From: Candidatus Nanoarchaeia archaeon | GTDB lineage: Archaea > Nanobdellota > Nanobdellia > SCGC-AAA011-G17 > VGLX01 | Direction of reading: 5' to 3' | Assembly (NCBI GenBank): GCA_038884815.1 | Contig: JAWABC010000009.1 | Span: forward strand, 8,925 to 19,741 | DNA: 10,817 bases | Shown here: piece by piece, positions 1 through 10,817 of the stretch | Position numbering within the stretch: the first letter of the stretch is position 1 | Layout of the letters: every line of letters begins with the position of its first letter | Notes under the pieces: generated by a model | Database searches by the model: none | The model's input: only the letters and a program-made list of their open reading frames with translations | Told to the model about the DNA's origin: nothing | Position numbers and translations under genes: made by a program

Positions 1-1705
1 CAATAATGCTGATAATCAAAGCCAACACTACAAAAGTAACAAAAGAAAAAATAAGCATAGAATGAACAAATCCCAAAATCAAAGCCTCTCTAACCTCAAC
101 TACCACGAACCAAGAAGTGCTGGGAACAGCCTTACACTTTCCCAAAACCCTCATCCCAGCATAATTTTTGTAGAACTTACTTACAGACTCAGCATTAACA
201 CATTTGGAATAAAAAAGCTCTTCAGAAAGAGGTTTGACCTTAAGGAGGGAGTCATTGACATAAGCAAGGTTGGTGATTGCATAACCTTCCTCGTTCAACA
301 AGTAAGACTCTAATGCGGCATCGTTAAGATGCGTCACGTAATCTACCTCACTCAGATTCGCATAAGCAACCAGAACACCCAAAAGAATTCCTCCATCATC
401 AAATATGGGGGTTGAAAAAACCACGTGCTTATTACCAGTAAATTCTGAAATGCGAACCGTCACGTAATCCTTTTTCTTAGCATTCACAAAGTAATCAAAG
501 TTGGAAGAGTCATCACTTATAGAATCGTTACCGGCAGAAAGGAGCAGCCTGCCATGCTCATCCAAAATAAACAAAGCATCAAAAGGCAGTCCGTCACCAA
601 CATAGGGGTCAAACATCAGCTTAGTTTGTGGCGAATTGAAGAAAAAGCTTTTATTTTGCTTACGAGAGATTAAAAAATTTTTAGCCATGGAAGATGAGAT
701 CATATTAAGACTTTGCTTCGTCTCTTCCAAATACATAGAAATGTGCTCAGCCTCAAGATCAGTCAATTCCTGAATGTTATTCTCAAAAATATTTGATAAC
801 ACTTTCTTGTTGTTAAAGTAATAAGCGTAATTGCCAACTGCTGTGAAAAAAACTGCAATCGTGATGAAAGACAAAACAAAAATTGTGCTCAGCTTCACAT
901 GACCTACGATGGGTTCATGAACTTCTCTTTTATGATGCTGAGGAACCATCTTCTCAACAAAGGATTTATTGATAGCCTTACGCTTTCTAAGACTTGCCAA
1001 CAAGAAACAAAAACCTAAACACATACATGCATAATAAAGAGTGAAAAAGGTGTCAAAAATGACACCCAAAACTCCATACACGCCATGCCACAAATAAACA
1101 GGATAAATTACATCACCTACAAAAACAAAAATGCCTGCGAGTGCGAAAAAAAGAAGGGGCCATGCAAAAAAACTGAAACGCCTCAAAAAGATGAAAATGG
1201 AAAGGGTGTTGAAAAAGATCAAACTACTCATCATAGGATAAAAATAACCCAAAAACAATGACAAAAAGGATTCCTCAGCATAAACACTGAATATATACTT
1301 ATTTATGAAAAAGTAAACCATTATAACCAAAATTGTGCTGCTTGTCAAATTCAAAAACAAACCAAGCCCTAACTTTTTTTCCAATTTGTAAATAGAAATG
1401 GAAAAATAAAAAAATGCAAAAACAAGCAAGCAAGAATCAATCACGTAAAAAAGGTTAGGTAAACCAAACTCAGCTTCACTGCCATAAACCCACTCAATGA
1501 TGTCCCAAGAAAACTCTGCAATGGCAGCAGACATGGCGGCCAAAGCCAACAAGACAAAAACTCTGACAAGCCATCTGTTCTGCTTAAAAAAAGGTAAAGA
1601 AGTTTTACGAATCTTAAAAAAAACCAGTAAGGCGAAGACTGCACTCATCAAAGCAAAGAAGTCCATAAACGGGTAAATGAAATACTGGAAGCCTTCGAGA
1701 CTCAT
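1..1705 (-). CDS. Membrane sensor protein, 3'-partial (C-terminus lies beyond the window start). Order of parts: seven N-terminal TM helices, a basic cytoplasmic linker, TM8, a ~245-aa extracytoplasmic double-Cache-like domain, then TM9. The output domain is not visible.
   Basis: I translated the minus strand by hand from ATG 1705-1703 (MSLEGFQYFIYPFMDFF...) down to position 2. That is 568 codons with no stop. The supplied track lists only short off-frame ORFs here, presumably because this ORF is open-ended. A GAGGT Shine-Dalgarno lies 6 nt upstream of the ATG. Cache-like segments include DPYVGDGLPFDALFILDEHGRLLLSAG, HVVFSTPIFDDGGILLGVLVAYANLSEV and YKNYAGMRVLGKCKAVPSTSWFVVVEV. They are flanked by the hydrophobic helices LSTIFVLSFITIAVFFTAV and ALILGFVHSMLIFSFVTFVVLALIISII. 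Confidence 0.8.
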   Translation of the reverse strand, partial: MSLEGFQYFIYPFMDFFALMSAVFALLVFFKIRKTSLPFFKQNRWLVRVFVLLALAAMSAAIAEFSWDIIEWVYGSEAEFGLPNLFYVIDSCLLVFAFFYFSISIYKLEKKLGLGLFLNLTSSTILVIMVYFFINKYIFSVYAEESFLSLFLGYFYPMMSSLIFFNTLSIFIFLRRFSFFAWPLLFFALAGIFVFVGDVIYPVYLWHGVYGVLGVIFDTFFTLYYACMCLGFCFLLASLRKRKAINKSFVEKMVPQHHKREVHEPIVGHVKLSTIFVLSFITIAVFFTAVGNYAYYFNNKKVLSNIFENNIQELTDLEAEHISMYLEETKQSLNMISSSMAKNFLISRKQNKSFFFNSPQTKLMFDPYVGDGLPFDALFILDEHGRLLLSAGNDSISDDSSNFDYFVNAKKKDYVTVRISEFTGNKHVVFSTPIFDDGGILLGVLVAYANLSEVDYVTHLNDAALESYLLNEEGYAITNLAYVNDSLLKVKPLSEELFYSKCVNAESVSKFYKNYAGMRVLGKCKAVPSTSWFVVVEVREALILGFVHSMLIFSFVTFVVLALIISII

Positions 1706-1760: not shown

Positions 1761-2591
1761 CTAAAATACAGTTTCTTCAGGAAACACAACGATACCCTTA
1801 TCCGTAATCTTCATTGGAAAAATCCTAGTGGAATGCTCAACACCCTTCAACTTCAAAACCTCAATGGCACGCTCCCTCATGTCACCCTTCCTTATGTTGT
1901 AAAGAAGTATTATACCATCAACATCAAACTCAACTGTTTTTGGGTGATGCCTGTCAACGTTCTGCTCCTCCTCAGCAACAAGGATAGCAGTACAACCCCA
2001 CCTCTTGATAAGCTTAAACAAATCAAGAAAGGCTTCCATCCTGGTCAATTCATCCTTGAAAAGAAATGCAAAAGCAGTTAGGGAATCAATAACTATGCGC
2101 TTGGCCTTTATCTTCTCAACAGCGACATCAACCTCACCACCACCTTCAGACAGCAGCTTCTTAACCTGCTCAGGGGTGTACTCTATAACGACAAGCTTGT
2201 GCTCATCCTGATACTTTTTCAAATCCCAACCAAACTTAGACATATGCTTTAACACATCCTCCTCTCTTTCCTCAAATGTTATGTAAACACCTGGCTCGTT
2301 AAACTTCTCTATCCCATTAACAAGGAACTGAATTGAGAAAATGGTCTTGCCAGAACCAGGACCGCCAGCAATTATGTTAACAGAGTTTTCTTCAAACCCA
2401 CCACCCATCACCTTGTCCAAACCCTCGATTCCTGTCTTAACAGGCCTCTCCTCAGTAACAACTGTAACCGGTCTTACAACAGGAAACTCCGCTCTAGTAA
2501 TCTGAACCTTACCATCCTTAAGAGAGATGTTATGACTCACAGCCTCACTGGGAGAATGAGCTTCCTCCCTCTCACCATTTTTTGAGTTCAT
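1761..2591 (-). CDS. Single-domain KaiC/RecA-superfamily ATPase (COG0467/RAD55-like; positional analogue of FlaH/ArlH)
   Basis: The sequence TGIEGLDKVMGGGFEENSVNIIAGGPGSGKTIFSIQFLVNG contains the Walker A motif GPGSGKT. RIVIDSLTAF is Walker B-like. The C-terminal part DGIILLYNIRKGDMRERAIEVLKLKGVEHSTRIFPMKITDKGIVV is typical of KaiC/RadA-like domains. The track starts the ORF at TTG 2594, but ATG at 2591 (MNSKNG...) is the more likely start. Confidence 0.85.
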   Translation of the reverse strand: MNSKNGEREEAHSPSEAVSHNISLKDGKVQITRAEFPVVRPVTVVTEERPVKTGIEGLDKVMGGGFEENSVNIIAGGPGSGKTIFSIQFLVNGIEKFNEPGVYITFEEREEDVLKHMSKFGWDLKKYQDEHKLVVIEYTPEQVKKLLSEGGGEVDVAVEKIKAKRIVIDSLTAFAFLFKDELTRMEAFLDLFKLIKRWGCTAILVAEEEQNVDRHHPKTVEFDVDGIILLYNIRKGDMRERAIEVLKLKGVEHSTRIFPMKITDKGIVVFPEETVF

Positions 2592-2632
2592 CAAAAAAAG
2601 GAATGAAAAACAGGTTTATAAATTTTTGTTTA
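2592..2632 (-). promoter_or_regulatory. Short spacer with a TATA-box-like TTTATAAA (2615-2622) about 27 nt upstream of ATG 2591, plus T5 and T7 runs. It may be an internal, near-leaderless promoter and/or an oligo-T pause or terminator.
   Basis: The minus strand reads tgaTAAACAAAAATTTATAAAcctgtttttcattcctttttttgATG. The TATA-to-ATG distance fits the usual archaeal TATA-to-TSS spacing if the mRNA is leaderless. No Shine-Dalgarno is present. Confidence 0.35.
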
Positions 2633-3619
2633 TCAAAAAGTGAACAGCCCGCCAAGAACGTTAGAAACTACAAAGCGGACAAGGAAGAACAAGCCGATGC
2701 TTATGCACAAAACAAAAGGTATAAGCTTAAAGCCATACTTCTCCTCTCCATGTAGGATCAAACCCATCATCAACCCACCAAGGATAGAAGTTATGGAAAT
2801 GGAAGTTATGATATAAGTTATGACAAAGCCGGGAGTTACAGAAACTTTCGTTATTGTAATAGGAAGATTCATGGCTAAACTTTCTTTAGGAATCTCAACC
2901 TCAGAAAGTATACTGGTCATAACCTCAACAAGAAAAGAACTCAAACCATAAAGAAGAGGAGCGCCAATGCATATTGCAGCAAAAATAAAAATTACGTACA
3001 TCCTAATGTTAGCGCGAACCTTCTGATTGATGAATTCCTGGTTACGAAGATTACGAGCCGTCTGGTCAAGCAAAGAAGCCAACTCGCCACCAGCCCTCAA
3101 ACCAGAAACTATAAGCATCATAGTCTTCTTAAACTTGTCAGAGTTAATCCTGCTAGCCATACCCAAAAGACAATCATCGATGTTTTTACCAACAGTAATT
3201 TCCTTACCCACCCTCATTATCTCCTCAGTAAGCGGACCGAACTCAGGCCTTGCTGAAAGCAGAAGAGCACGCTCAGGAGTGAAGCCAGCCCTCATGTTAC
3301 TTGACATGAGTTGCAAGGCATCAGGCAAAACCTTTTCAATAAACTTAGCCTTGGCATCAACGCTAAGCAAGAGCCAAACGTAAACAGTCACCTCAAAAGC
3401 AACAAACGTTATAATGAAAGTAAGCCAGAGATTCCACTGAAACATGTAGCCAAGACCAAAGGCAAGCACCCAAGCAAAGCCAAAACCAAAAGAAAGTATA
3501 AAACCAGTAAACTTATATGGGTCGATCCTTATGTGGGCAAAGTCAAGAAGCTTCTTGTAAGACTCAAAAACCCTTCTTGGGAAAAGTTTGGATATAAGCC
3601 TGTAAAACATCTTACTCAC
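2633..3619 (-). CDS. Type IV filament platform protein with one T2SS-F domain (TadC/EpdK-like; equivalent to the C-terminal half of FlaJ/PilC)
   Basis: The cytoplasmic T2SS-F-like segment is LPDALQLMSSNMRAGFTPERALLLSA...FGPLTEEIMRVGKEITVGKNIDDCLLGMASRINSDKFKKTMMLIVSGLRAGGELASLLDQTARNLRNQ. It sits between N-terminal and C-terminal TM helices. The track start at 3619 is a GTG that overlaps the upstream gene by 8 nt. An ATG at 3610 (MFYRLISK...), 1 nt after the upstream TAA, is an equally plausible start. Confidence 0.85.
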   Translation of the reverse strand: MSKMFYRLISKLFPRRVFESYKKLLDFAHIRIDPYKFTGFILSFGFGFAWVLAFGLGYMFQWNLWLTFIITFVAFEVTVYVWLLLSVDAKAKFIEKVLPDALQLMSSNMRAGFTPERALLLSARPEFGPLTEEIMRVGKEITVGKNIDDCLLGMASRINSDKFKKTMMLIVSGLRAGGELASLLDQTARNLRNQEFINQKVRANIRMYVIFIFAAICIGAPLLYGLSSFLVEVMTSILSEVEIPKESLAMNLPITITKVSVTPGFVITYIITSISITSILGGLMMGLILHGEEKYGFKLIPFVLCISIGLFFLVRFVVSNVLGGLFTF

Positions 3620-4520
3620 TCAACAGGTGAGGCCTCCTAGATTTTATCATACCCAAAAATATTATCTGCAGGAAAATTATGAAAACAAGCAAACCCCACA
3701 AAGCCATCTTTGTAGCGTTCTCAGAAAGGGCAATGAAAGAAGAAATTATTATGATGAATGTTATGCTCAGAGAAGGGGCTATAACAGCTACAAGCATGTA
3801 AAACATAGCAAGAGGGTTAAGCTGGCTGCCATAATTCTGAATCTGAACAAGCTGCTCCTCAGACAAGTCATTAATTATGTCATTTATTACAGTGGCTAAG
3901 TCACTACCTGCCTTCATGCTGTTGACTATCTGCCAAACAGCACGCCTGAACAAAGGGGAAGGGTTCTCAGAAGCTAATTCTTCCAAAGCCTCAACTTGAG
4001 GCCTTCCTGTATTAATCTGCTTGACAGCCTTGCTAAACTCTTTAGACAAATCACCATAGTCACCCTTAGAAATGTTAACAAGTATGTTAAAAAGAGGAAC
4101 CCCAGAATTAAGCTGAATCAGTATGTTCTGCAAGGCAGGAAGAAGGTTCTTCTCCAAACCACGAATCTTACGGTTGGAATAAATCCTTGGGTACATGATC
4201 TGCTGAGCAAAAACAAACAAAGAGAAAACAGCAGATACGATGAATCCCACACCAAGAGGAGCCTCAAAACCTATCAAAGAGATTACAGTGGGAGTGGAAA
4301 AAACAAAAGTGAGTATGAAACCTAAGATTACAAAGAAAAAAAGAGTTGAAGAAATGCACAAAGCAATGTACTCCTTAGCATCAACGTCCATGCCTGACTG
4401 CTTAAGGTTCAAGTCCAACAAAGGAAAAACAGGTTTTACAGCCTGGCCTAAACCGATGAATGCCTTCGCGAACCTCCTAAGAACCTTTGGAGGTAAAAAG
4501 TTGTATGGAATTCTTATCAT
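3612..4520 (-). CDS. Type IV filament platform protein with one T2SS-F domain (TadB/EpdJ-like; equivalent to the N-terminal half of FlaJ/PilC)
   Basis: The T2SS-F-like segment is LLPALQNILIQLNSGVPLFNILVNISKGDYGDLSKEFSKAVKQINTGRPQVEALEELASENPSPLFRRAVWQIVNSMKAGSDLATVINDIINDL, flanked by TM helices. ATG 4520 lies 6 nt after the ATPase TGA stop (4527-4529). Confidence 0.85.
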   Translation of the reverse strand: MIRIPYNFLPPKVLRRFAKAFIGLGQAVKPVFPLLDLNLKQSGMDVDAKEYIALCISSTLFFFVILGFILTFVFSTPTVISLIGFEAPLGVGFIVSAVFSLFVFAQQIMYPRIYSNRKIRGLEKNLLPALQNILIQLNSGVPLFNILVNISKGDYGDLSKEFSKAVKQINTGRPQVEALEELASENPSPLFRRAVWQIVNSMKAGSDLATVINDIINDLSEEQLVQIQNYGSQLNPLAMFYMLVAVIAPSLSITFIIIISSFIALSENATKMALWGLLVFIIFLQIIFLGMIKSRRPHLLSE

Positions 4521-4526
4521 TATGAA

Positions 4527-6029
4527 TCATTTAAACAGCTCATCAACATTACCCTTCTCAACAATCTTTAGGAAAGACTCTGGATCAACGTAATAAGCGT
4601 TCATTATCTTACCAACTTGGTCTATGCTCCTAAAGTTATTCTTAACCATCCAATCAAGGATGAACTTCTTGGTGGCAAGGTCCTTATCAATCTCCTTCTG
4701 ACTCATACCAGTATGCCTACTCAAGTCTTCGAACAACTTCTGAGCCTTGCCATGCACCACGATCTTGTCACTGTCAGGCCTCCACCTATAAAGTATGTTA
4801 GGCTTAACAGACGTCCTGCCCTCTTCTTCCTCAGAAGTTATGAACTCACCTATCTGGAAGGTACGCCTAATACCCTTACGCCTATCCCTAAACATGACAA
4901 TGTCCAAGTTAACCGCACTCAAAAGGTTGGGAGGAACTTTAAGAGGAGGATTCGTAAGCCTCCTAATCGTATCAGCAATAGTATCAGCATGAACAGTAGC
5001 GTAAACAGAGTGACCTGTGTGCATGGCCTCGAAAAGAACCTCTGCCTGGTCCTTCTTACGCATCTCACCAAGGATGATACGGTCAGGCCTCATCCTAAGA
5101 GAGTTGACAAGCAAGTCAAACATAGAAACCTTACCCTTCCCCTCTGGGTTGGGCTGCCTAGTTATGAGAGGACACCAGTACAAGTGTTCAGCAAGCTGCA
5201 ACTCACGAGTATCCTCAATACTCAAAATCCTCTGATTCGGGGGGATAAAGGCCATGAGGACATTAAGCATAGAGGTCTTACCAGAAGCAGTGCCCCCACT
5301 CACCAGGATGTTCATCTCATACTGAACAGCCAACCAGACGAGAGCAAAAACACTGGAATCACAAGTGTTGTTTTTTATGAAGTCAGTAACGGTCCAAGGA
5401 TCACGCGCAAATTTCCTTATAGTTATGGTGTTACCTTTGGTAGCAATAGGGTAAAGAACAGCGTTAGCACGGTCACCGGTAACAAGGTGAGCGTCAAGCA
5501 AAGGATTAAGTGTTGTAACTTGACGACCAACACGACGCGCAATTATGCTAGCATAGTTATGAATCTGATCCTCTGTCCTCACAAAAATGTTGGTGTCAAG
5601 CCAGCCGTACTTCTTATGGAAAACCCTGATAGGTTCTTTGGAAGAGGTTAGAACAATTTCTTCAAGATTTGAATCGTTCATCAAAAACTCCACATCTCCA
5701 AGACCAAGCATTTCATGAAGTAAAGTGTTAACAAGATAAGTCTTAACATCAGGCTCAAGGTTCGGAAGGAGCTTATCAAGCAAGGCATCAGCCCTAACAC
5801 TAAACCTCTGTTTAAGAGCATCTATTATTTGCGGGTTCAATATTTCAGACGTGCTTATTGTAGTTTCAACAACAAGCTGATTCCTTATCTCATCAAGAAG
5901 GGCAGCTGTAGCAACAGAAAGTTCTGGAATCACCAATTCGTAACGCAAATTCCTACCCACAGTCCTCATTATCTTAACTGTAATCTCAATCATGTCAGAC
6001 TGAACTTTGTATGACTCTACTTCTTGCAT
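4527..6029 (-). CDS. Type II/IV secretion-family hexameric ATPase (FlaI/ArlI, TadA, VirB11, archaeal PilB clade)
   Basis: This is a 500-aa ORF. Walker A is VSGGTASGKTSMLN, the Asp box is RILSIEDTRELQL, Walker B is RPDRIILGEMR and the His box is HTGHSVYATVHAD. ATG 6029 overlaps the upstream gene's stop by 13 nt. Confidence 0.92.
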   Translation of the reverse strand: MQEVESYKVQSDMIEITVKIMRTVGRNLRYELVIPELSVATAALLDEIRNQLVVETTISTSEILNPQIIDALKQRFSVRADALLDKLLPNLEPDVKTYLVNTLLHEMLGLGDVEFLMNDSNLEEIVLTSSKEPIRVFHKKYGWLDTNIFVRTEDQIHNYASIIARRVGRQVTTLNPLLDAHLVTGDRANAVLYPIATKGNTITIRKFARDPWTVTDFIKNNTCDSSVFALVWLAVQYEMNILVSGGTASGKTSMLNVLMAFIPPNQRILSIEDTRELQLAEHLYWCPLITRQPNPEGKGKVSMFDLLVNSLRMRPDRIILGEMRKKDQAEVLFEAMHTGHSVYATVHADTIADTIRRLTNPPLKVPPNLLSAVNLDIVMFRDRRKGIRRTFQIGEFITSEEEEGRTSVKPNILYRWRPDSDKIVVHGKAQKLFEDLSRHTGMSQKEIDKDLATKKFILDWMVKNNFRSIDQVGKIMNAYYVDPESFLKIVEKGNVDELFK

Positions 6030-7138
6030 AACTCAGCCTCCCCCAACGGAGGATAATTAATCCTGATAAGGCCGTGCTCCTCAAGGATCTTGCCCCATTG
6101 CTCAGCAAGCTCCTTTGAGATGCCAAAACCAGCGGCAATCTCACTTACCGTTACCTTACCACGCTTCTCCACAAGCTCATAAACCTTATCGATATTGGTT
6201 TTGTATTTACTTGCCCTTGCAATAACGCTCTCCTTTATTGCTTTTAAAGTTTCAATCTTGCTTTCCCTCTCCTGCTGCCTTCTCTTTCTAATATTCCTAT
6301 ATATCTTCAAAAAAACGAAACCAGTAAAAAGCCCTGCCAAGACAGCAAGAGTTATCCACGCGTACCAATTAAGGAATGGTATTTTGGCTTTCCTGTTGAT
6401 AATAAGCAGAGCGACAAGTATAAAAACAGAAATACAGTAAGAAATTATTGTTACGTGCTTGTAAATTTTTGGATAATGATGAGGTTGAATAATAGGCTTC
6501 TTCTCTTTCTTTCCTTCTTTTTTCTCCTTCTCCTGCACCTTCTCCTCGGTTTTCTTAGCAGCCTTCTTGCTGAACAAACCAACAAACCTTATTTTTATAT
6601 CTTTGACGTTAAAAACAATCCTTTCCTTTACCTCTGTAAAAAAGCCTCTACCTCTGGGCTTTTCCTTCTTAGGCTCCTTAACCTCTTTCTTAACAACCTT
6701 CTCCTTTGTGAGTTTAGGTTTTTCCTTAACATGAAGACCTCTTGCCTTAGCAAAAATGAACAAAACAATAGCACCAAAAGTTAATCCAGCAAGGATAAAA
6801 ACCCAAAGAGTAAGATTTAATGGCGAGGATATGAGGTCGTAATACTGCTTTGTAATCTGGTAAGTCCTAGCATACAAGAAATAAATCACTATAGCTATAG
6901 TTATGAAGCCGAGAAGTATCCTGTAAACCATCTTCTCCTTGTTCTGCATGATAAGACTTGTGAAAGTGTCAGCATGAGTAAGCTTAACCCCCTCGGCAAT
7001 GAAACCTATGAGCATGAGAATAAAACCAAGAACAACAGTTATGACAAACCAGCGGTCATAGAAAAAAGAGGCTAAAATAGCAGCCAAACCCAGCCAGAAA
7101 AAAACTCCAAAAATCTTGTAAATCCTCTGATCCAACAT
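6017..7138 (-). CDS. Polytopic membrane protein (about 6 TM) with a ~95-aa Lys/Glu-rich loop and a C-terminal cytoplasmic winged-helix (wHTH)-like domain
   Basis: ATG is at 7138. There are four TM helices in aa 8-130 and a K/E-rich segment in aa 131-226 (KEKPKLTKEKVVKKEVKEPKKEKPRGRG...KKTEEKVQEKEKKEGKKEKK). Two more TM helices lie in aa 229-279, followed by the basic stretch RNIRKRRQQERESK. The wHTH-like tail is DKVYELVEKRGKVTVSEIAAGFGISKELAEQWGKILEEHGLIRINYP. The CDS call is solid; the domain call is by eye only. Confidence 0.8.
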   Translation of the reverse strand: MLDQRIYKIFGVFFWLGLAAILASFFYDRWFVITVVLGFILMLIGFIAEGVKLTHADTFTSLIMQNKEKMVYRILLGFITIAIVIYFLYARTYQITKQYYDLISSPLNLTLWVFILAGLTFGAIVLFIFAKARGLHVKEKPKLTKEKVVKKEVKEPKKEKPRGRGFFTEVKERIVFNVKDIKIRFVGLFSKKAAKKTEEKVQEKEKKEGKKEKKPIIQPHHYPKIYKHVTIISYCISVFILVALLIINRKAKIPFLNWYAWITLAVLAGLFTGFVFLKIYRNIRKRRQQERESKIETLKAIKESVIARASKYKTNIDKVYELVEKRGKVTVSEIAAGFGISKELAEQWGKILEEHGLIRINYPPLGEAELCKK

Positions 7139-7223
7139 CTAACTCAAAATCCCCCCTTTTTCTTACTTCTAATATGAACCATATTTCATTTATTAAATGT
7201 TTGTTTTACTTATTTAATAGTAA
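7139..7223 (-). promoter_or_regulatory. 85-bp spacer between the pilin block and the machinery block, with A/T-rich TATA-like boxes and a purine-rich RBS-like G6 run
   Basis: The minus strand reads tagTTACTATTAAATAAGtaaaacaaacaTTTAATAAatgaaatatggttcatattagaagtaagaaaaaGGGGGGATtttgagttagATG. TTTAATAA lies at 7190-7197 and the G-run at 7151-7156, 12 nt from ATG 7138. This is the only sizeable non-coding gap inside the locus. Confidence 0.35.
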
Positions 7224-8069
7224 CTATGCAATCCTCGCTGTGCTAAACTTAGTAAGATTAGATTCAGGAAAAGTTATGTTGTAAAGGTTTTGAGGGTAAG
7301 TGACTATGATCCTTTCATCTTGAGGAATGTTCATTGTTATGTTGGTAGAGAAAATAACATCATGGTTATCTTTGGTTGATAAGTTCATCATAGCAGGATT
7401 ATTTATGTCTATGTCAATCCTCCAAGTTGAAGGGTAAGACAAAAGAACGTAAGCACTGCTGTAAGCTGCAGGGTTAACGTTCACAGTAGAAGACAAAGAG
7501 CCTGAGGAATGCTCCACTTTTATTGTGAAAGGCATTGAACCGGAAGAAACGTAGTTCCAGGTTATCGTAGCGCTCTGAGCAGTAGAAGTTATTGTAATCA
7601 CATAACTCTTAACATCGTCAACGCTTTGCGGACTTACCATTATCTCCTCATCGCCAAAAGCGTCATGGGTATAAACAATACCTTTAGGCTCGACGTTCAG
7701 AGTCAACTTATTTTTAACGCTGCTGTAAACAGAGCTGTCAAAAACAACTTTGGGAGAAACGTTATAGTTATCCTCTACATAGGACTTGAACTGATCCATA
7801 ACGTTACCGAAATTGCTGCTTCTGGGAAGGGTTTCTGTGAAAACAACAGACTCATTATAAACGTCAACAGCAAGGCCTGACCTGTAATCAAAAATCCTTC
7901 TCAAACCCATACCTATTGAAGAGTCAAGCTCGTAAAGCCTGTCAAAAAGAGCAAGCTCACCAAAGCGATCGTTCAAAGACTTCGTGTTGTGAAACATCAA
8001 AATACCCAAAGAAAAAACAACGCTGGCTAGGAAAAACATACCAAGAGTAATCATAACACCTTTTTTCAT
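7224..8069 (-). CDS. Pilin-like or pilus-associated secreted protein with a class III-type signal (MKKG|VMITLGMFFLASVVFSLGILMF) and a ~250-aa Ser/Thr/Asn-rich beta-rich ectodomain
   Basis: ATG 8069 forms an ATGA overlap with the upstream TGA (8066-8069). The track's start at 8084 is a TTG five codons further upstream. A [KR]G pair precedes a 22-residue hydrophobic helix. Several N-x-S/T sequons are present (NES, NVS, NLS, NIT x2, NLT). I recognised no known domain. Confidence 0.75.
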   Translation of the reverse strand: MKKGVMITLGMFFLASVVFSLGILMFHNTKSLNDRFGELALFDRLYELDSSIGMGLRRIFDYRSGLAVDVYNESVVFTETLPRSSNFGNVMDQFKSYVEDNYNVSPKVVFDSSVYSSVKNKLTLNVEPKGIVYTHDAFGDEEIMVSPQSVDDVKSYVITITSTAQSATITWNYVSSGSMPFTIKVEHSSGSLSSTVNVNPAAYSSAYVLLSYPSTWRIDIDINNPAMMNLSTKDNHDVIFSTNITMNIPQDERIIVTYPQNLYNITFPESNLTKFSTARIA

Positions 8070-8521
8070 CTCAACCACATCCAATAATGTGCAGTAGCGA
8101 AATACTCAACTGTTGCCTCACCAGATGTCTCATTAGGAATCACAAAGTTACGACTGCCACCAACAATAAGCTGCTCGCCAGGAGGCTCTGTAGTGCTCTC
8201 CACAGTAAGTATGCCAGGAAGGAATGTCCCATTAATCTGAACCCTCATATGATAAGTAGCAGGCAAAAGAGTTTTTACTTGTGCAGAAACATCACTCTGA
8301 TTCAAACCAACCAAATCACCTTCATGATCCATAACAGCCAACAAGTCATAACCAGTACGGGTCATCTGCAGCTTAGACAAAGGCTCATCATTAGCACGGC
8401 CAACGTAAAAAGAAGCAACAACCAAGAAAATGAAGACTACAAAAACTGCAACGGCAGCATCCAAAGATAGGATGAAGCCCTTACTTCCAAACCGTGAACT
8501 CGAACAAAGCCCTCTGCCCAT
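8066..8521 (-). CDS. Pilin-like protein with a class III-type signal (MGRGLCSSSRFGSKG|FILSLDAAVAVFVVFIFLVVASF)
   Basis: ATG 8521 is the only canonical start in this frame before the hydrophobic helix. It overlaps the upstream gene by 41 nt. A KG pair precedes a ~23-aa hydrophobic helix, and the ~110-aa ectodomain carries the sequons NQS, NGT and NET. Confidence 0.75.
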   Translation of the reverse strand: MGRGLCSSSRFGSKGFILSLDAAVAVFVVFIFLVVASFYVGRANDEPLSKLQMTRTGYDLLAVMDHEGDLVGLNQSDVSAQVKTLLPATYHMRVQINGTFLPGILTVESTTEPPGEQLIVGGSRNFVIPNETSGEATVEYFATAHYWMWLR

Positions 8522-8963
8522 TGAAAATCACATACCTGTAAAGGTTAACCCTCTTCGTATCTTGAGATGTGTAGTTAAGACCCAACTCTTTTAATGTCAC
8601 ACCGCCAAAAGTCTTAACCTTCAAAGAATAATCATAAGGATGGATGTCAAACAAATCTTTTGTTGTTTCATAACTTAAATTAGCCATGGCATCTATCTTC
8701 TCAGCAGACAAAACCCTGTCATCAGAAGCCAAGCCAAGAACGGTAACGTTTTGAGGACTAACTTCCCACCTTGAAGGAACGCCAGGAGTCTTAACCAGCA
8801 TATCTGTAATGTGAAAAGCATGAAGCTGCATCTCCTCGTCTTCCAAGTCATCAGCCAACCTCGAGTTGTAAACGTTCCAAACAACGAGAAGTATGACAGT
8901 TAGAAGTATGAAAACAAGGAATGATATTATCAGGTCAACGCTTTCTATTTGCCCTTTAGACGT
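8481..8963 (-). CDS. Pilin-like protein whose class III-type signal (..TSKG|QIESVDLIISFLVFILLTVILLVVW) lies upstream of the first canonical start codon. The true start is unresolved.
   Basis: The track ORF 8481..8858 begins at a TTG. The same frame stays open upstream as far as a TGA at 8970-8972. That upstream stretch encodes CTTSKGQIESVDLIISFLVFILLTVILLVVWNVYNSR, a KGQ motif plus a hydrophobic helix like those of the neighbouring genes. It contains no in-frame ATG, GTG or TTG. The left (stop) coordinate is firm and the right coordinate is a guess (the ACG codon at 8961-8963). Confidence 0.6.
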   Translation of the reverse strand, partial: TSKGQIESVDLIISFLVFILLTVILLVVWNVYNSRLADDLEDEEMQLHAFHITDMLVKTPGVPSRWEVSPQNVTVLGLASDDRVLSAEKIDAMANLSYETTKDLFDIHPYDYSLKVKTFGGVTLKELGLNYTSQDTKRVNLYRYVIFNGQRALFEFTVWK

Positions 8964-9348
8964 TGTACATCACCACCGTGCCGTTTATGTTTTCAGCAAT
9001 GACATAACCTTCGTAAAGGTCAAAGGAAGAATTGCCATCAGGAGAACCTACCATGGTGTGGGAAAACTTGCAAATGTAACCCTCACCAGCAGTTTCAACA
9101 ACACCAGAAGAGCCATCTACATTAACATTCTTTGTAAGCTTAAAAGTTATGTTCGTTTTAGGGCCGCTAACATACAAACCAGTAATCATGTTGGAGACCT
9201 TCATGCACTCAGACTTCTCAGTAACAAAGTCCTCAATCTGGAACAAATCACTCCTCCTATCAAAAGTCAGAAACACAAGTATGAGAAACATGAAAGTCAT
9301 TAAAGCGATTGCAACCAAGATTTCAAAACTACCTTGCGCCCTTTTCAT
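8956..9348 (-). CDS. Type IV pilin-like protein with a class III signal peptide (MKRA|QGSFEILVAIALMTFMFLILVFLTF)
   Basis: ATG 9348 directly abuts the upstream TAA (TAAATG). Residues Q-G-S-F-E fit the archaeal Class_IIIsignal QxSxE motif, with R and A at positions -2 and -1. The protein is 130 aa, which is pilin-sized, and carries the sequons NIT, NSS and NGT. Confidence 0.85.
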   Translation of the reverse strand: MKRAQGSFEILVAIALMTFMFLILVFLTFDRRSDLFQIEDFVTEKSECMKVSNMITGLYVSGPKTNITFKLTKNVNVDGSSGVVETAGEGYICKFSHTMVGSPDGNSSFDLYEGYVIAENINGTVVMYNV

Positions 9349-10599
9349 TTAACCACCTATAGGCACGCAACAACAATAGTCACCTGTAGGACCGGTCTGA
9401 CAATATGCATCTCCCACAGGTAAATATATCTCATTGTTAATGTTACACTGAGCAATGTTCTGCCTACAGTTACCGTACCAGTAACCATTATATCCACACT
9501 GACCGGCACAGCTGTTGAGGAAAGAATCAAAAATGGTCTTGTTCATCCTGAAAGACCAAATTTCTGACTGCCCTGTGTTAAGGTTGCTGCTGTTGTCTGT
9601 GCAGTTAACGTACCACGTGTAATTACCCAAGTCGATAATCTGGGAAGCGTTAACTGTAACATTCTGTGGGATATTAATCTTGTAAGTTGTGTAGTGGGCT
9701 TCAACACCGTCATCAAGAACTCCGTCAGCCTGTATTATACAATAAAGTACTGAGTTGTTGGTATCGCTAACATTCCAATAAAAGTCCACAAAAGACCAGT
9801 TAAGGAAACTGTTGTTCATAGGACTTATTAGATGTACTTCAGGCGGGCCAACATCATCACTCCAGTTAATAGTATAATTACCAGTGCCTGGTGCACCACA
9901 TGGCATGCTTGTCTGGAAGAAAATCATGCTTGAAGATGTCATCTTGTTGCCAAAAGTGTCCATACATCTGGTGTAGTAAGTGTAGTTTCTTTCAGGGTCT
10001 GTGTAAATCTCAACTGTATGAGTAAGGGCACGGCCATCAAAAATGTTAGCCATGCTGTCATAATCGGTATCGATAGTATCATATTTACAAGTTGCGGGCT
10101 CATCAGTGTCAGCACCAACAATGGTAAAGCCAGGACAGACAAACTGGTCTGGAAGTGTGTAAGGGTAAACCCTCAAAATTATCGGAGGTGTTGTGTCATT
10201 GTATTCCTCTCCAATCCTGACAACACCTGCTTCAAGGGCCTCAACAGACATCCTATAAGTGTTCTTATCAGTAGGAATAGAACCGACAAGTGCAGCCTTG
10301 CTAGAACGATGAACTTCTGTTGAACCACCGAAAATGCTTAACTGGATTAACAACTCTGAACCGTTAACAGAGGTATAGGTAACACCGCTGGGGATAGAAA
10401 TCCAGACGTACTTCCTAGAGCCAGGGCCAAGAGAATAAACAGTGTCAGCAGCGTTAGCCAAAGTGCTAACAGCATCATCAGCCTGGTTAATCCTTACGTT
10501 GTTGTTTGCCTCACTTATACCATAAAAAAACAGGGGCACTGTTATCAGGATTATTATGCCAACAAGAAAGATGTACTCTATACTAACTTGCGCCCTCAT
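9349..10599 (-). CDS. Large pilin-like protein (416 aa) with a class III signal peptide (MRA|QVSIEYIFLVGIIILITVPLFF), two beta-sandwich-like modules and a Cys-rich C-terminal knob. It is a candidate tip adhesin.
   Basis: QVSIEYIFL matches the QxSxExxxL class III motif exactly. ATG 10599 is the likely start. The track's GTG at 10626 would add MFLYLYFEK and would run through the TATA-like element. There are 15 N-x-S/T sequons and 8 Cys residues in aa 364-411. Confidence 0.85.
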   Translation of the reverse strand: MRAQVSIEYIFLVGIIILITVPLFFYGISEANNNVRINQADDAVSTLANAADTVYSLGPGSRKYVWISIPSGVTYTSVNGSELLIQLSIFGGSTEVHRSSKAALVGSIPTDKNTYRMSVEALEAGVVRIGEEYNDTTPPIILRVYPYTLPDQFVCPGFTIVGADTDEPATCKYDTIDTDYDSMANIFDGRALTHTVEIYTDPERNYTYYTRCMDTFGNKMTSSSMIFFQTSMPCGAPGTGNYTINWSDDVGPPEVHLISPMNNSFLNWSFVDFYWNVSDTNNSVLYCIIQADGVLDDGVEAHYTTYKINIPQNVTVNASQIIDLGNYTWYVNCTDNSSNLNTGQSEIWSFRMNKTIFDSFLNSCAGQCGYNGYWYGNCRQNIAQCNINNEIYLPVGDAYCQTGPTGDYCCCVPIGG

Positions 10600-10742
10600 T
10601 TTTTCAAAATATAGGTATAAAAACACATTTTTTATTACTTCTTATTCATTATAGAGTGGTATAATAAGGTTTATATACGGGATAATCATTAAATTATCCT
10701 AACTTAGAGATACTAAAAATTAAAAAAAAGGAGGCGAATAAA
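10600..10742. promoter_or_regulatory. Divergent intergenic control region containing a TATA box TTTATATA (10670-10677, near-palindromic), further A/T boxes near 10616-10640, and AGGAGG (10729-10734) serving the plus-strand pilin gene
   Basis: The plus strand reads ggTTTATATAcgg ... aaaaAGGAGGcgaataaaGTG. The Shine-Dalgarno lies 8 nt from GTG 10743. The TATA box lies about 70 nt upstream of that start, which implies a leader of roughly 40 nt. The minus strand reads gtgTTTTTATAcctatattttgaaaaaATG with no Shine-Dalgarno, suggesting a leaderless or very short-leader mRNA. Confidence 0.45.
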
Positions 10743-10817
10743 GTGAAAAGAGGACAAGCAGCCATGGAGTTTTTGATGACTTATGGTTGGGCTATTCTAG
10801 TAGTTTTAGTTGCAATC
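10743..10817 (+). CDS. Type IV pilin-like protein, 5' fragment only (25 codons), with a class III signal peptide V(M)KRG|QAAMEFLMTYGWAILVVLVAI. It is a candidate major pilin.
   Basis: The GTG start has a perfect AGGAGG 8 nt upstream. A KRGQ cleavage-type motif is followed by E at +5 and a hydrophobic helix. The ORF runs off the right edge, so it is absent from the ORF track. Confidence 0.8.
   Translation, partial: MKRGQAAMEFLMTYGWAILVVLVAI

Follow-up and report, generated by a model that had tools for sequence, protein, structure and literature searches.

A 10,817-nt stretch of contig JAWABC010000009.1 from a Candidatus Nanoarchaeia archaeon (positions 8,925 to 19,741), here called the window, contains a string of minus-strand genes that encode, in order, five pilin-like proteins, a membrane protein with a C-terminal winged helix-turn-helix domain (the TM-wHTH protein, TM standing for transmembrane), a T2SSE ATPase, two T2SSF proteins and a KaiC-type ATPase. 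We consider it probable that this locus is the operon for assembling a type IV pilus of the non-rotary, adhesion type in a DPANN archaeon (a Woesearchaeota-like member of the Nanoarchaeia) and that it lies in or next to clade 2 of the archaeal systems. Most of its parts are already known, and the locus does not overturn the current classification of type IV pili; what is new is the TM-wHTH component, whose family appears to be undescribed, together with an architecture that is found DPANN-wide. DPANN archaea are obligate or likely symbionts whose means of finding and holding their hosts are largely unknown, and pili-like filaments have been seen on their cells while the machines that build them are uncharacterised. 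The locus also gives a functional context to a large, unannotated family of TM-wHTH proteins.

Gene content and organization

The gene string was read from a listing of open reading frames (ORFs) and a six-frame translation, and domains were called by profile scans against Pfam and NCBIfam. Neighbouring genes within the string overlap or lie less than 90 nt apart, and a gap of 85 nt (7139–7223) separates the pilin cassette from the machinery genes. On the other side of the cassette an AT-rich divergent intergenic region (10627–10742), which by its sequence presumably carries promoters for both directions, leads to a plus-strand prepilin gene (10743–10817) of which the first 25 codons are present before the window ends; it has a GTG start after a GGAGG at 10730–10734 and the translation VKRGQAAMEFLMTYGWAILVVLVAI.

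An original prediction, made from the DNA of the window, had described this string of five class III-signal proteins, a six-TM protein with a wHTH tail, an ATPase, two T2SSF proteins and a KaiC-like protein as an archaeal type IV filament locus with a sixth, divergent prepilin gene, and these elements are all confirmed: the ATPase, the T2SSF platform and the class III substrates were each found. It had also called the locus self-contained and had ended the string at position 1761, and neither description holds, given that a twelfth co-directional ORF (1–1705) follows the KaiC gene, that the probable major pilin gene is represented by just 25 codons, and that no window ORF matches a prepilin peptidase family in the Pfam and NCBIfam scans, an absence that had been predicted correctly. 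Nothing peptidase-like was noticed among the frequent neighbour families of related loci, on which no peptidase profile was run.

Conservation across DPANN loci

The window proteins were used to search the ORFs of a comparison set of 80 species-representative genome loci, and the neighbour counts refer to 81 related loci. In 72 of the 73 loci with room for it, the gene immediately upstream of the ATPase gene is that for the TM-wHTH protein, and both platform genes lie 3' of the ATPase gene in 71 of 74. A KaiC gene comes next after the second platform gene in 26 of 62 loci and is present anywhere in the fetched flanks (about 10 kb) in 44 of the 62, so the KaiC-like and wHTH genes are conserved neighbours in related genomes, and the original prediction withstands its own refuting check on this point. 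The five-pilin string is co-directional as in the window in 20 of 50 loci and is replaced by a divergent string in 25 of 50. The closest long relative, L083, whose ATPase is 80% identical, has the order pilin-wHTH-ATPase-TadC-TadC, as in the window, with KaiC genes located 3.4 kb downstream and as an upstream pair with DUF7504 genes; because of this order and this placement, the association of KaiC with the locus is described as persistent but positionally fluid. The gene order recurs in about 80 genomes, and the arrangement is far beyond chance. Among the Woesearchaeota and Pacearchaeota the locus is the pilus machine that dominates, and it is highly conserved.

A protein with 100% identity to the window ATPase is encoded in the “Candidatus Nanoarchaeia archaeon” metagenome-assembled genome (MAG) GCA_038884535.1, and the homologues of the ATPase include thousands of MAG proteins at 57–80% identity that are labelled Woesearchaeota, Pacearchaeota or Nanoarchaeota. 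By these matches the source is a DPANN archaeon of the Nanoarchaeia/Woesearchaeota type.

The assembly ATPase and the split platform

The assembly ATPase (4527–6029, minus strand; 500 aa), a member of the secretion-ATPase superfamily, matches T2SSE at 7.1e-35, and the Walker A and B, Asp and His boxes are visible in its translation as GGTASGKTS, DRIILGEMR and HTGHSVYATVHA. Its best relative of solved structure is Archaeoglobus AfGspE (AF0659, PDB 2OAP), with 255 bits over residues 40–493 including the C-terminal domain, compared with 197 bits for Sulfolobus FlaI, where the alignment ends at residue 431, and 161 bits for Caulobacter CpaF. The FlaI equivalog model is the best NCBIfam match, at 283 bits, which is under its cutoff of 550. 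The Pfam family PilB3_C is matched by 22 of 32 members of the ATPase family, and by the window ATPase itself only with an E value of 0.053. AfGspE was assigned to clade 2 (arCOG01817) and credited with the “typical domain organization” (Makarova, Koonin, Albers 2016, PMC4858521). The sequence of the ATPase thus makes it probable that this protein, and the locus with it, belongs to clade 2, of the AfGspE/PilB3 type.

Platform proteins 1 (3612–4520, 302 aa) and 2 (2633–3619, 328 aa), both encoded on the minus strand, are paralogues with 26% identity that each have one T2SSF domain (3.2e-16 and 6.3e-18, respectively), and a sequence search gave no relative of solved structure for the platform protein. 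Platform protein 1 matches positions 30–242 of the UpsF model, the N-terminal half, and platform protein 2 matches positions 266–437, the C-terminal half; therefore, the two proteins represent the two halves of a protein that is fused in the Ups, Aap and archaellum systems.

The TM-wHTH protein

The TM-wHTH protein (6017–7138, minus strand; 373 aa) has six hydrophobic segments, a K/E-rich cytoplasmic loop and a C-terminal wHTH domain (about nt 6020–6211), and the end of its gene overlaps the start of the ATPase gene by 13 nt. Overlapping or abutting ORFs are seen for this gene pair in at least 32 of 77 loci, and the remainder are explained by K-rich N-terminal extensions of the ATPase. Conservation is limited to the last ~62 residues (consensus KKYETDLDKLYELLKEKKKLKLSEIAKIFKISKEKAEEWAKILEEHELIEIHYPAFGEPEL), a domain found in 79 of 82 loci, whereas the N-terminal portion ranges from just two TM helices in proteins of ~170 aa to the six TM helices plus K/E-rich loop of the window protein. 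That loop corresponds to a Lys/Glu-rich low-complexity segment at 6470–6750 (residues ~131–225), and in relatives (P0018, P0051 and P0064) such segments occur as C-terminal tails of the wHTH protein or as N-terminal tails of 30–85 aa on the ATPase.

An AlphaFold2 model of residues 231–373 (pLDDT, the predicted local distance difference test, 90.3) has two TM helices, the second of which extends as a long helix that leads into a predicted wHTH domain of H-b-H-H-b-b topology (H85–96, E98–100, H101–108, H112–124, E128–131, E139–142). A Foldseek search with the wHTH model retrieved winged-helix proteins only, with ESCRT-II first (E 2e-3, 36% identity over 59 columns) and then many MarR-type regulators. 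No Pfam family matches the domain at cutoff, and weak matches were obtained to MarR, DeoR, TrmB, IclR and PCI, the last with 18 of 60 members. The net charge is zero or negative in the recognition helix of 95% of the 60 members and in the wing of 90%, the pI of the domain is ~6.4, and the residues T, D, W, L, E, Y, P and G are invariant. Such a charge on the recognition helix and wing is unusual for a winged helix that binds DNA, and the acidic “recognition” helix therefore suggests an adaptor that tethers the ATPase rather than a DNA binder.

The family is large, with 2,873 clusters (at 50% identity) at E ≤ 1e-3 and at least 1,216 at E ≤ 1e-10, and the wHTH domain is almost always C-terminal. 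Sizing it needed an exhaustive HMMER search: a word-index search with the full TM-wHTH protein gave three matches, probably due to the low-complexity K/E-rich loop, and a profile of 60 wHTH domains gave eight short proteins. In the search for fusions, the longer ATPases (528–584 aa) proved to have only K-rich N-terminal tails, the long members of the wHTH family have no T2SSE domain, and one top match, P0147, is an unrelated multi-HTH protein. In the texts on archaeal pilus loci that could be read there is no mention of a TM-wHTH partner of the ATPase; a “protein with C-terminal wHTH” (arCOG07863) that is listed in a Caldivirga 4G locus is unrelated.

A serious alternative, although one to which we give a clearly minor probability, is that the TM-wHTH protein regulates transcription from the membrane, as a tethered factor of the ArnR/ToxR type that would sense the state of the envelope or pilus and control the promoters of the pilin and machinery genes, and that the KaiC-type ATPase and the downstream sensor form a separate signalling module that happens to lie nearby. 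The wHTH fold and its weak matches to MarR, DeoR, TrmB and IclR speak for such a factor, as does the existence of membrane-bound regulators, ArnR and arCOG00381, in archaeal type IV pilus and archaellum loci, and in type B loci the wHTH gene adjoins the divergent promoter region. The variable position of the KaiC gene among loci would also fit, as would the role of general signalling hub that has been proposed for KaiC-like ATPases. On the other hand, a recognition helix and wing that are net acidic in 90–95% of members and the set of invariant residues argue against DNA binding, near-universal adjacency to the ATPase gene and the overlap of the ORFs suit a stoichiometric partner better than a regulator, and the top Foldseek match is a protein-binding winged-helix domain, that of ESCRT-II, alongside the matches to PCI. 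We infer for the TM-wHTH protein the role of a protein-binding module, tethered to the membrane, that would partner the ATPase.

The KaiC-type ATPase

The KaiC-type protein (1761–2594, minus strand), whose probable start is the ATG at 2591, is a RecA-superfamily ATPase that matches PF06745 from end to end (1–230 of 231; 213.9 bits, 2.7e-63), with a Walker A motif, GPGSGKT, and the catalytic FEE visible. Against proteins of solved structure it scores up to 241 bits with KaiC and 141 bits with the single-domain archaeal PH0284, but 33 bits with FlaH (4YDS), and among models KaiC_arch_3 gives 168 bits whereas ArlH gives 54 bits against a cutoff of 215. Because the FlaH and ArlH scores are far below the KaiC scores and the cutoff, the protein is, as judged by these matches, a single-domain KaiC-family ATPase and not an ArlH/FlaH orthologue, contrary to the FlaH-like identity first given to it. 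In the KaiC region a 12-nt indel distinguishes the window from the NCBI contig L001 (3556–4374), which carries the identical ATPase (272 vs 276 aa from ATG 2591); the window is therefore a slightly different assembly or strain than L001. In 12–15 genomes there is, in addition, a recurrent side module near the pilus locus, made up of a tandem pair of KaiC genes, one or two genes for the KaiC-like DUF7504 and a gene for a small 4-TM protein of ~150 aa (for example, L002 13387–15951 and L083 861–4868).

The archaellum ATPases and motility are regulated by KaiC-like proteins (ArlH and CirA), and how KaiC exerts control is an open question for the archaellum, whose ArlH was “recruited from an unknown source”. 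The ATPase, the KaiC-type ATPase and the wHTH domain make up a simple and biochemically tractable trio with which to address KaiC control of type IV filament ATPases. A stronger version of such control, which we think unlikely, is that a ring of TM-wHTH proteins (ArlX-like) and a KaiC hexamer (ArlH-like) clamp the ATPase as structural parts of a DPANN-wide pilus motor, in what would be an independent or ancestral-grade version of the archaellum cytoplasmic scaffold on a non-rotary pilus. If true, it would show the source of ArlH-type partners and would define a new archaeal type IV pilus subtype for the attachment of DPANN cells to their hosts.

The pilin-like proteins

Each of the five co-directional pilin-like proteins has a single N-terminal TM helix that follows a K/R-G/A motif, and with the divergent prepilin there are six N-termini in which K/R-G/A is followed by a hydrophobic helix, as in class III signals, with motifs that are conserved in homologues. 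Pilin 1 matches the Pfam family Class_IIIsignal (9e-5) with 22.7 bits, just under the cutoff of 23.7, and the profile scans gave no other Pfam or NCBIfam match for the pilins.

Pilin 1 (9349–10626, minus strand; 425 aa; RA/QVSIEY, with the slash at the presumed cleavage site) likely has its true start at the ATG that yields MRAQVSIEY. It contains 15 N-x-S/T sequons and 14 Cys, and homologues are present in 56 loci. A Cys-rich module at its C-terminus (9349–9570) has the pattern SCAGxCGxxG...C...KC...CCC(V/I)P, with 8–10 Cys in 75 aa, and is conserved in at least eight related loci; no family match was found for it. This large, glycosylation-rich and Cys-rich protein is a candidate tip or adhesin subunit. 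Pilin 2 (8956–9348, minus strand; 130 aa) begins with MKRA/QGSFEILVAIAL, its cleavage region being RA/QGSFE, and its homologues occupy the syntenic position in related loci.

Pilin 3 (8481–8966, minus strand; ~161 aa), with homologues in 39–52 loci, begins with SKG/QIESVDLIISFLV (KG/QIESVD) and has no canonical start before its signal peptide: around the signal (TTSKGQIESVDLIISFLV, window 8935–8975, minus strand), the reading frame lacks ATG, GTG and TTG between an upstream TGA and the TM helix. The same lack of a canonical start is seen in the independent assembly GCA_900174595.1 (L085 2050–2100), which differs from the window in the region encoding KGQIES by four nucleotides; because all of these differences are synonymous, the stretch is translated. 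The more distant relative L083 has a normal ATG at the start of pilin 3, and in the window initiation could be from a non-canonical start or by coupling to the upstream pilin gene.

Pilin 4 (8066–8521, minus strand; 151 aa; SKG/FILSLDAAVAV) has an N-terminus akin to that of neighbour family 8 (KKG/xFFSLDALIA) and is the short counterpart of class III proteins of 625–1633 aa in relatives with the divergent type of locus (L002 4536–7235, L011 1774–6675, L014 2884–6942 and L074 4407–6995). The inspected representative of these large proteins (L074) contains a vWA-like DxSxS motif, and they are probably adhesins of which the window has a short form. Pilin 5 (7224–8084, minus strand; 286 aa; MKKG/VMITLGMFFLA) has no acidic residue past the cleavage site and corresponds to neighbour families 9 and 11. 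Lastly, a near-invariant N-terminus, KKGQAAMEFLMTYGWAILVVLVAIGALAYFGVL, heads a family of ~150-aa pilins that is present in 37 loci as 46 copies, often several per locus, and to which the divergent gene at 10743 corresponds. By these sequence features, this family is the best candidate for the major pilin, and probably so.

The pilin set also bears on a quite different function, which we regard as rather improbable, in which the locus would encode a short, non-adhesive pseudopilus or an uptake device that takes up DNA or nutrients, or secretes proteins, for an auxotrophic DPANN cell, comparable to competence pili, the type II secretion system or the bindosome. DPANN cells rely on external nucleotides and lipids, five minor-pilin-like genes are also what type II secretion and competence systems have, and archaeal type IV filament systems functionalised with substrate-binding proteins have been proposed. 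However, neither the window nor the frequent neighbour families encode a ComEC-like channel, a nuclease or a substrate-binding protein with a class III signal, there is a conserved family of 150-aa major pilins with paralogues, and the relatives bear giant vWA-type pilins that are typical of adhesion. The bindosome in particular was rejected on the lack of substrate-binding proteins.

Relationship to known type IV filament systems

The part list was originally said to match no characterised system, and this stands insofar as no experimentally characterised system has exactly these parts. It does not stand for comparative genomics. Clade 2 includes some Nanoarchaea, the ATPases of Nanoarchaeum equitans and Nst1 are tabled there, two tadC genes are present in many of its loci, and the operons of this euryarchaeal clade show a strong association with KaiC-family ATPases (Makarova, Koonin, Albers 2016, PMC4858521), while islands with FlaI, TadB/TadC and unrecognisable pilins have been described in DPANN genomes (Makarova et al., 2019). 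The published work therefore covers most of the supposedly unmatched list, and the view that an archaellum-style ATPase pair with a Tad/Epd-style platform falls outside the described clades is not supported. Nor is the pilin set unusually large, as had been thought, given the five or more minor pilins of clade 1 loci.

The window locus is similar to clade 2 (Haloferax PilB3-PilC3/PilA, AfGspE) in having an ATPase of a family with the AfGspE/PilB3-type C-terminal domain, a KaiC-family ATPase in or near the operon, immunoglobulin (Ig)-like minor pilins upstream and a peptidase encoded elsewhere, and its two tadC genes directly follow the ATPase gene, as in the Aciduliprofundum boonei clade 2 locus (pilin-FlaI-TadC-TadC; PMC4858521). 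It differs in the synteny that ties a TM-wHTH gene to the ATPase gene, for which clade 2 has no mention, in pilins that carry Q at +1 (QxSxE) where the haloarchaea have the PilA-type signal, and in a cassette of five minor-pilin genes, and no MinD/FleN was seen near the window locus.

With the Epd pili of Methanococcus and Thermococcus (clade 1, system 1), which are reported in some DPANN, the locus shares two platform genes, at least five minor pilins, Gln at +1 in several prepilins and, in relatives of the window locus, large adhesin-like class III proteins. In contrast to Epd, the window locus has no DUF2341 protein, EppA/EpdA peptidase or FleN/MinD; the latter two are not in the window, and none of the unassigned families among the ten commonest neighbours carries a P-loop or peptidase annotation. 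Members of the candidate major pilin family have a median length of ~150 aa and a C-terminal domain, compared with the Flp-like pilin of ~70 aa in Epd, the ATPase resembles AfGspE/PilB3, and KaiC and the TM-wHTH protein are outside the Epd set. The bacterial Tad/Flp systems (TadA/CpaF, TadB, TadC, TadZ) likewise lack a retraction ATPase and place two platform proteins of one domain each after the ATPase, but the window ATPase is less like CpaF than like the archaeal ATPases, TadZ, a secretin and an Flp pilin are absent, and the window system uses archaeal class III signals.

The archaellum (ArlH-ArlI-ArlJ/ArlX) offers an analogy for how the KaiC-type and TM-wHTH proteins may act: there, too, a secretion ATPase that forms hexamers is paired with a protein of the RecA/KaiC fold and with a membrane protein from which a helical element reaches into the cytoplasm. 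In the window, however, the KaiC-type protein and ArlH are not orthologues, the platform is split and not fused, and the TM-wHTH protein has no detectable sequence similarity to ArlX. As predicted, none of the 11 window proteins has a Pfam or NCBIfam match to archaellin, ArlF/ArlG, ArlX or ArlCDE, which leaves the suggestion that the filament might rotate without support, and with its defining parts, including the archaellins and the ArlF/G stator, absent from the window, an archaellum was rejected. That the locus should be a categorically distinct machine, which joins the FlaH and FlaI motor pair of the archaellum to a Tad/Epd split platform and may rotate, is very improbable in our view. The combination of KaiC-like protein, ATPase, two T2SSF proteins and TM-wHTH protein is real, conserved and present in no experimentally studied pilus, and FlaI is the best NCBIfam match of the ATPase (283 bits), but the ATPase is under the FlaI cutoff and nearer to AfGspE, the KaiC-type protein scores with KaiC and not with FlaH or ArlH, archaellum components have no match, and the split tadC and KaiC association has already been described for clade 2.

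Proposed assembly mechanism

We propose that the locus builds an adhesion pilus in the following way. Once inserted into the membrane, the prepilins would be cleaved behind their K/R-G/A motif, and the class III signal peptidase responsible would be encoded elsewhere. The five co-transcribed pilin-like proteins would form a priming or tip complex in which the large, Cys-rich and glycosylated pilin 1 would be the likely adhesin, and the main subunit of the filament would be the small, highly conserved and divergently encoded QAAMEFLMTYGW pilin. The hexameric ATPase would power a heterodimeric platform of the two half-size T2SSF proteins, by which the pilins are lifted from the membrane into the fibre. 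The TM-wHTH protein would be made together with the ATPase, because their genes overlap, and would hold its winged helix on a long helical stalk under the membrane in the cytoplasm, where the domain may bind the ATPase or the platform, and not DNA, and so serve as a tether or scaffold at the membrane, comparable to ArlX, GspL or PilM/N. The KaiC-type ATPase may act on the assembly ATPase as an accessory switch that depends on nucleotide or phosphorylation, an analogue and not an orthologue of ArlH, and in this genome the switch could possibly be fed by the downstream membrane sensor.

Several points weigh against this scheme. The assignment to clade 2 rests on one solved clade 2 protein and a shared C-terminal domain, on scores and on published tables. 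Gln is at +1 in four of the six signal peptides, as in EppA/Epd substrates. The winged helix is by default a DNA-binding fold, and no fusion of wHTH and ATPase was seen among the 150 best family members. The KaiC gene varies in position and is missing from the fetched flanks of 18 of 62 loci, and the KaiC-type ATPase may be a general signalling hub and not a part of the machine. Attachment to a host or surface is argued by analogy, and the protein-protein contacts in the machine are likewise ones that we infer. Finally, a 2026 preprint assigns DPANN loci with two platform genes to system 1 (Epd-like) or to subsystem 4A, and describes extended ATPases and a single platform gene for system 2 (10.64898/2026.04.22.720090).

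Other features of the window

Scans for tRNAs and Rfam families gave no match in the window. The ORF at 1–1705 (minus strand) is the 5' part of a gene for a membrane sensor-like protein of at least 568 aa, with ~8 TM helices, an extracytoplasmic dCache-like domain and one further TM helix, which runs off the window. Among 82 loci it is present only in this genome (L001), so it is lineage-specific and was ruled out as a conserved part of the machine. It begins 55 nt past the KaiC stop in the same direction, its dCache_1-like match (1.5e-8) scores 34.9 bits, below the cutoff of 45, and its product is probably a sensor kinase or cyclase-type receptor.

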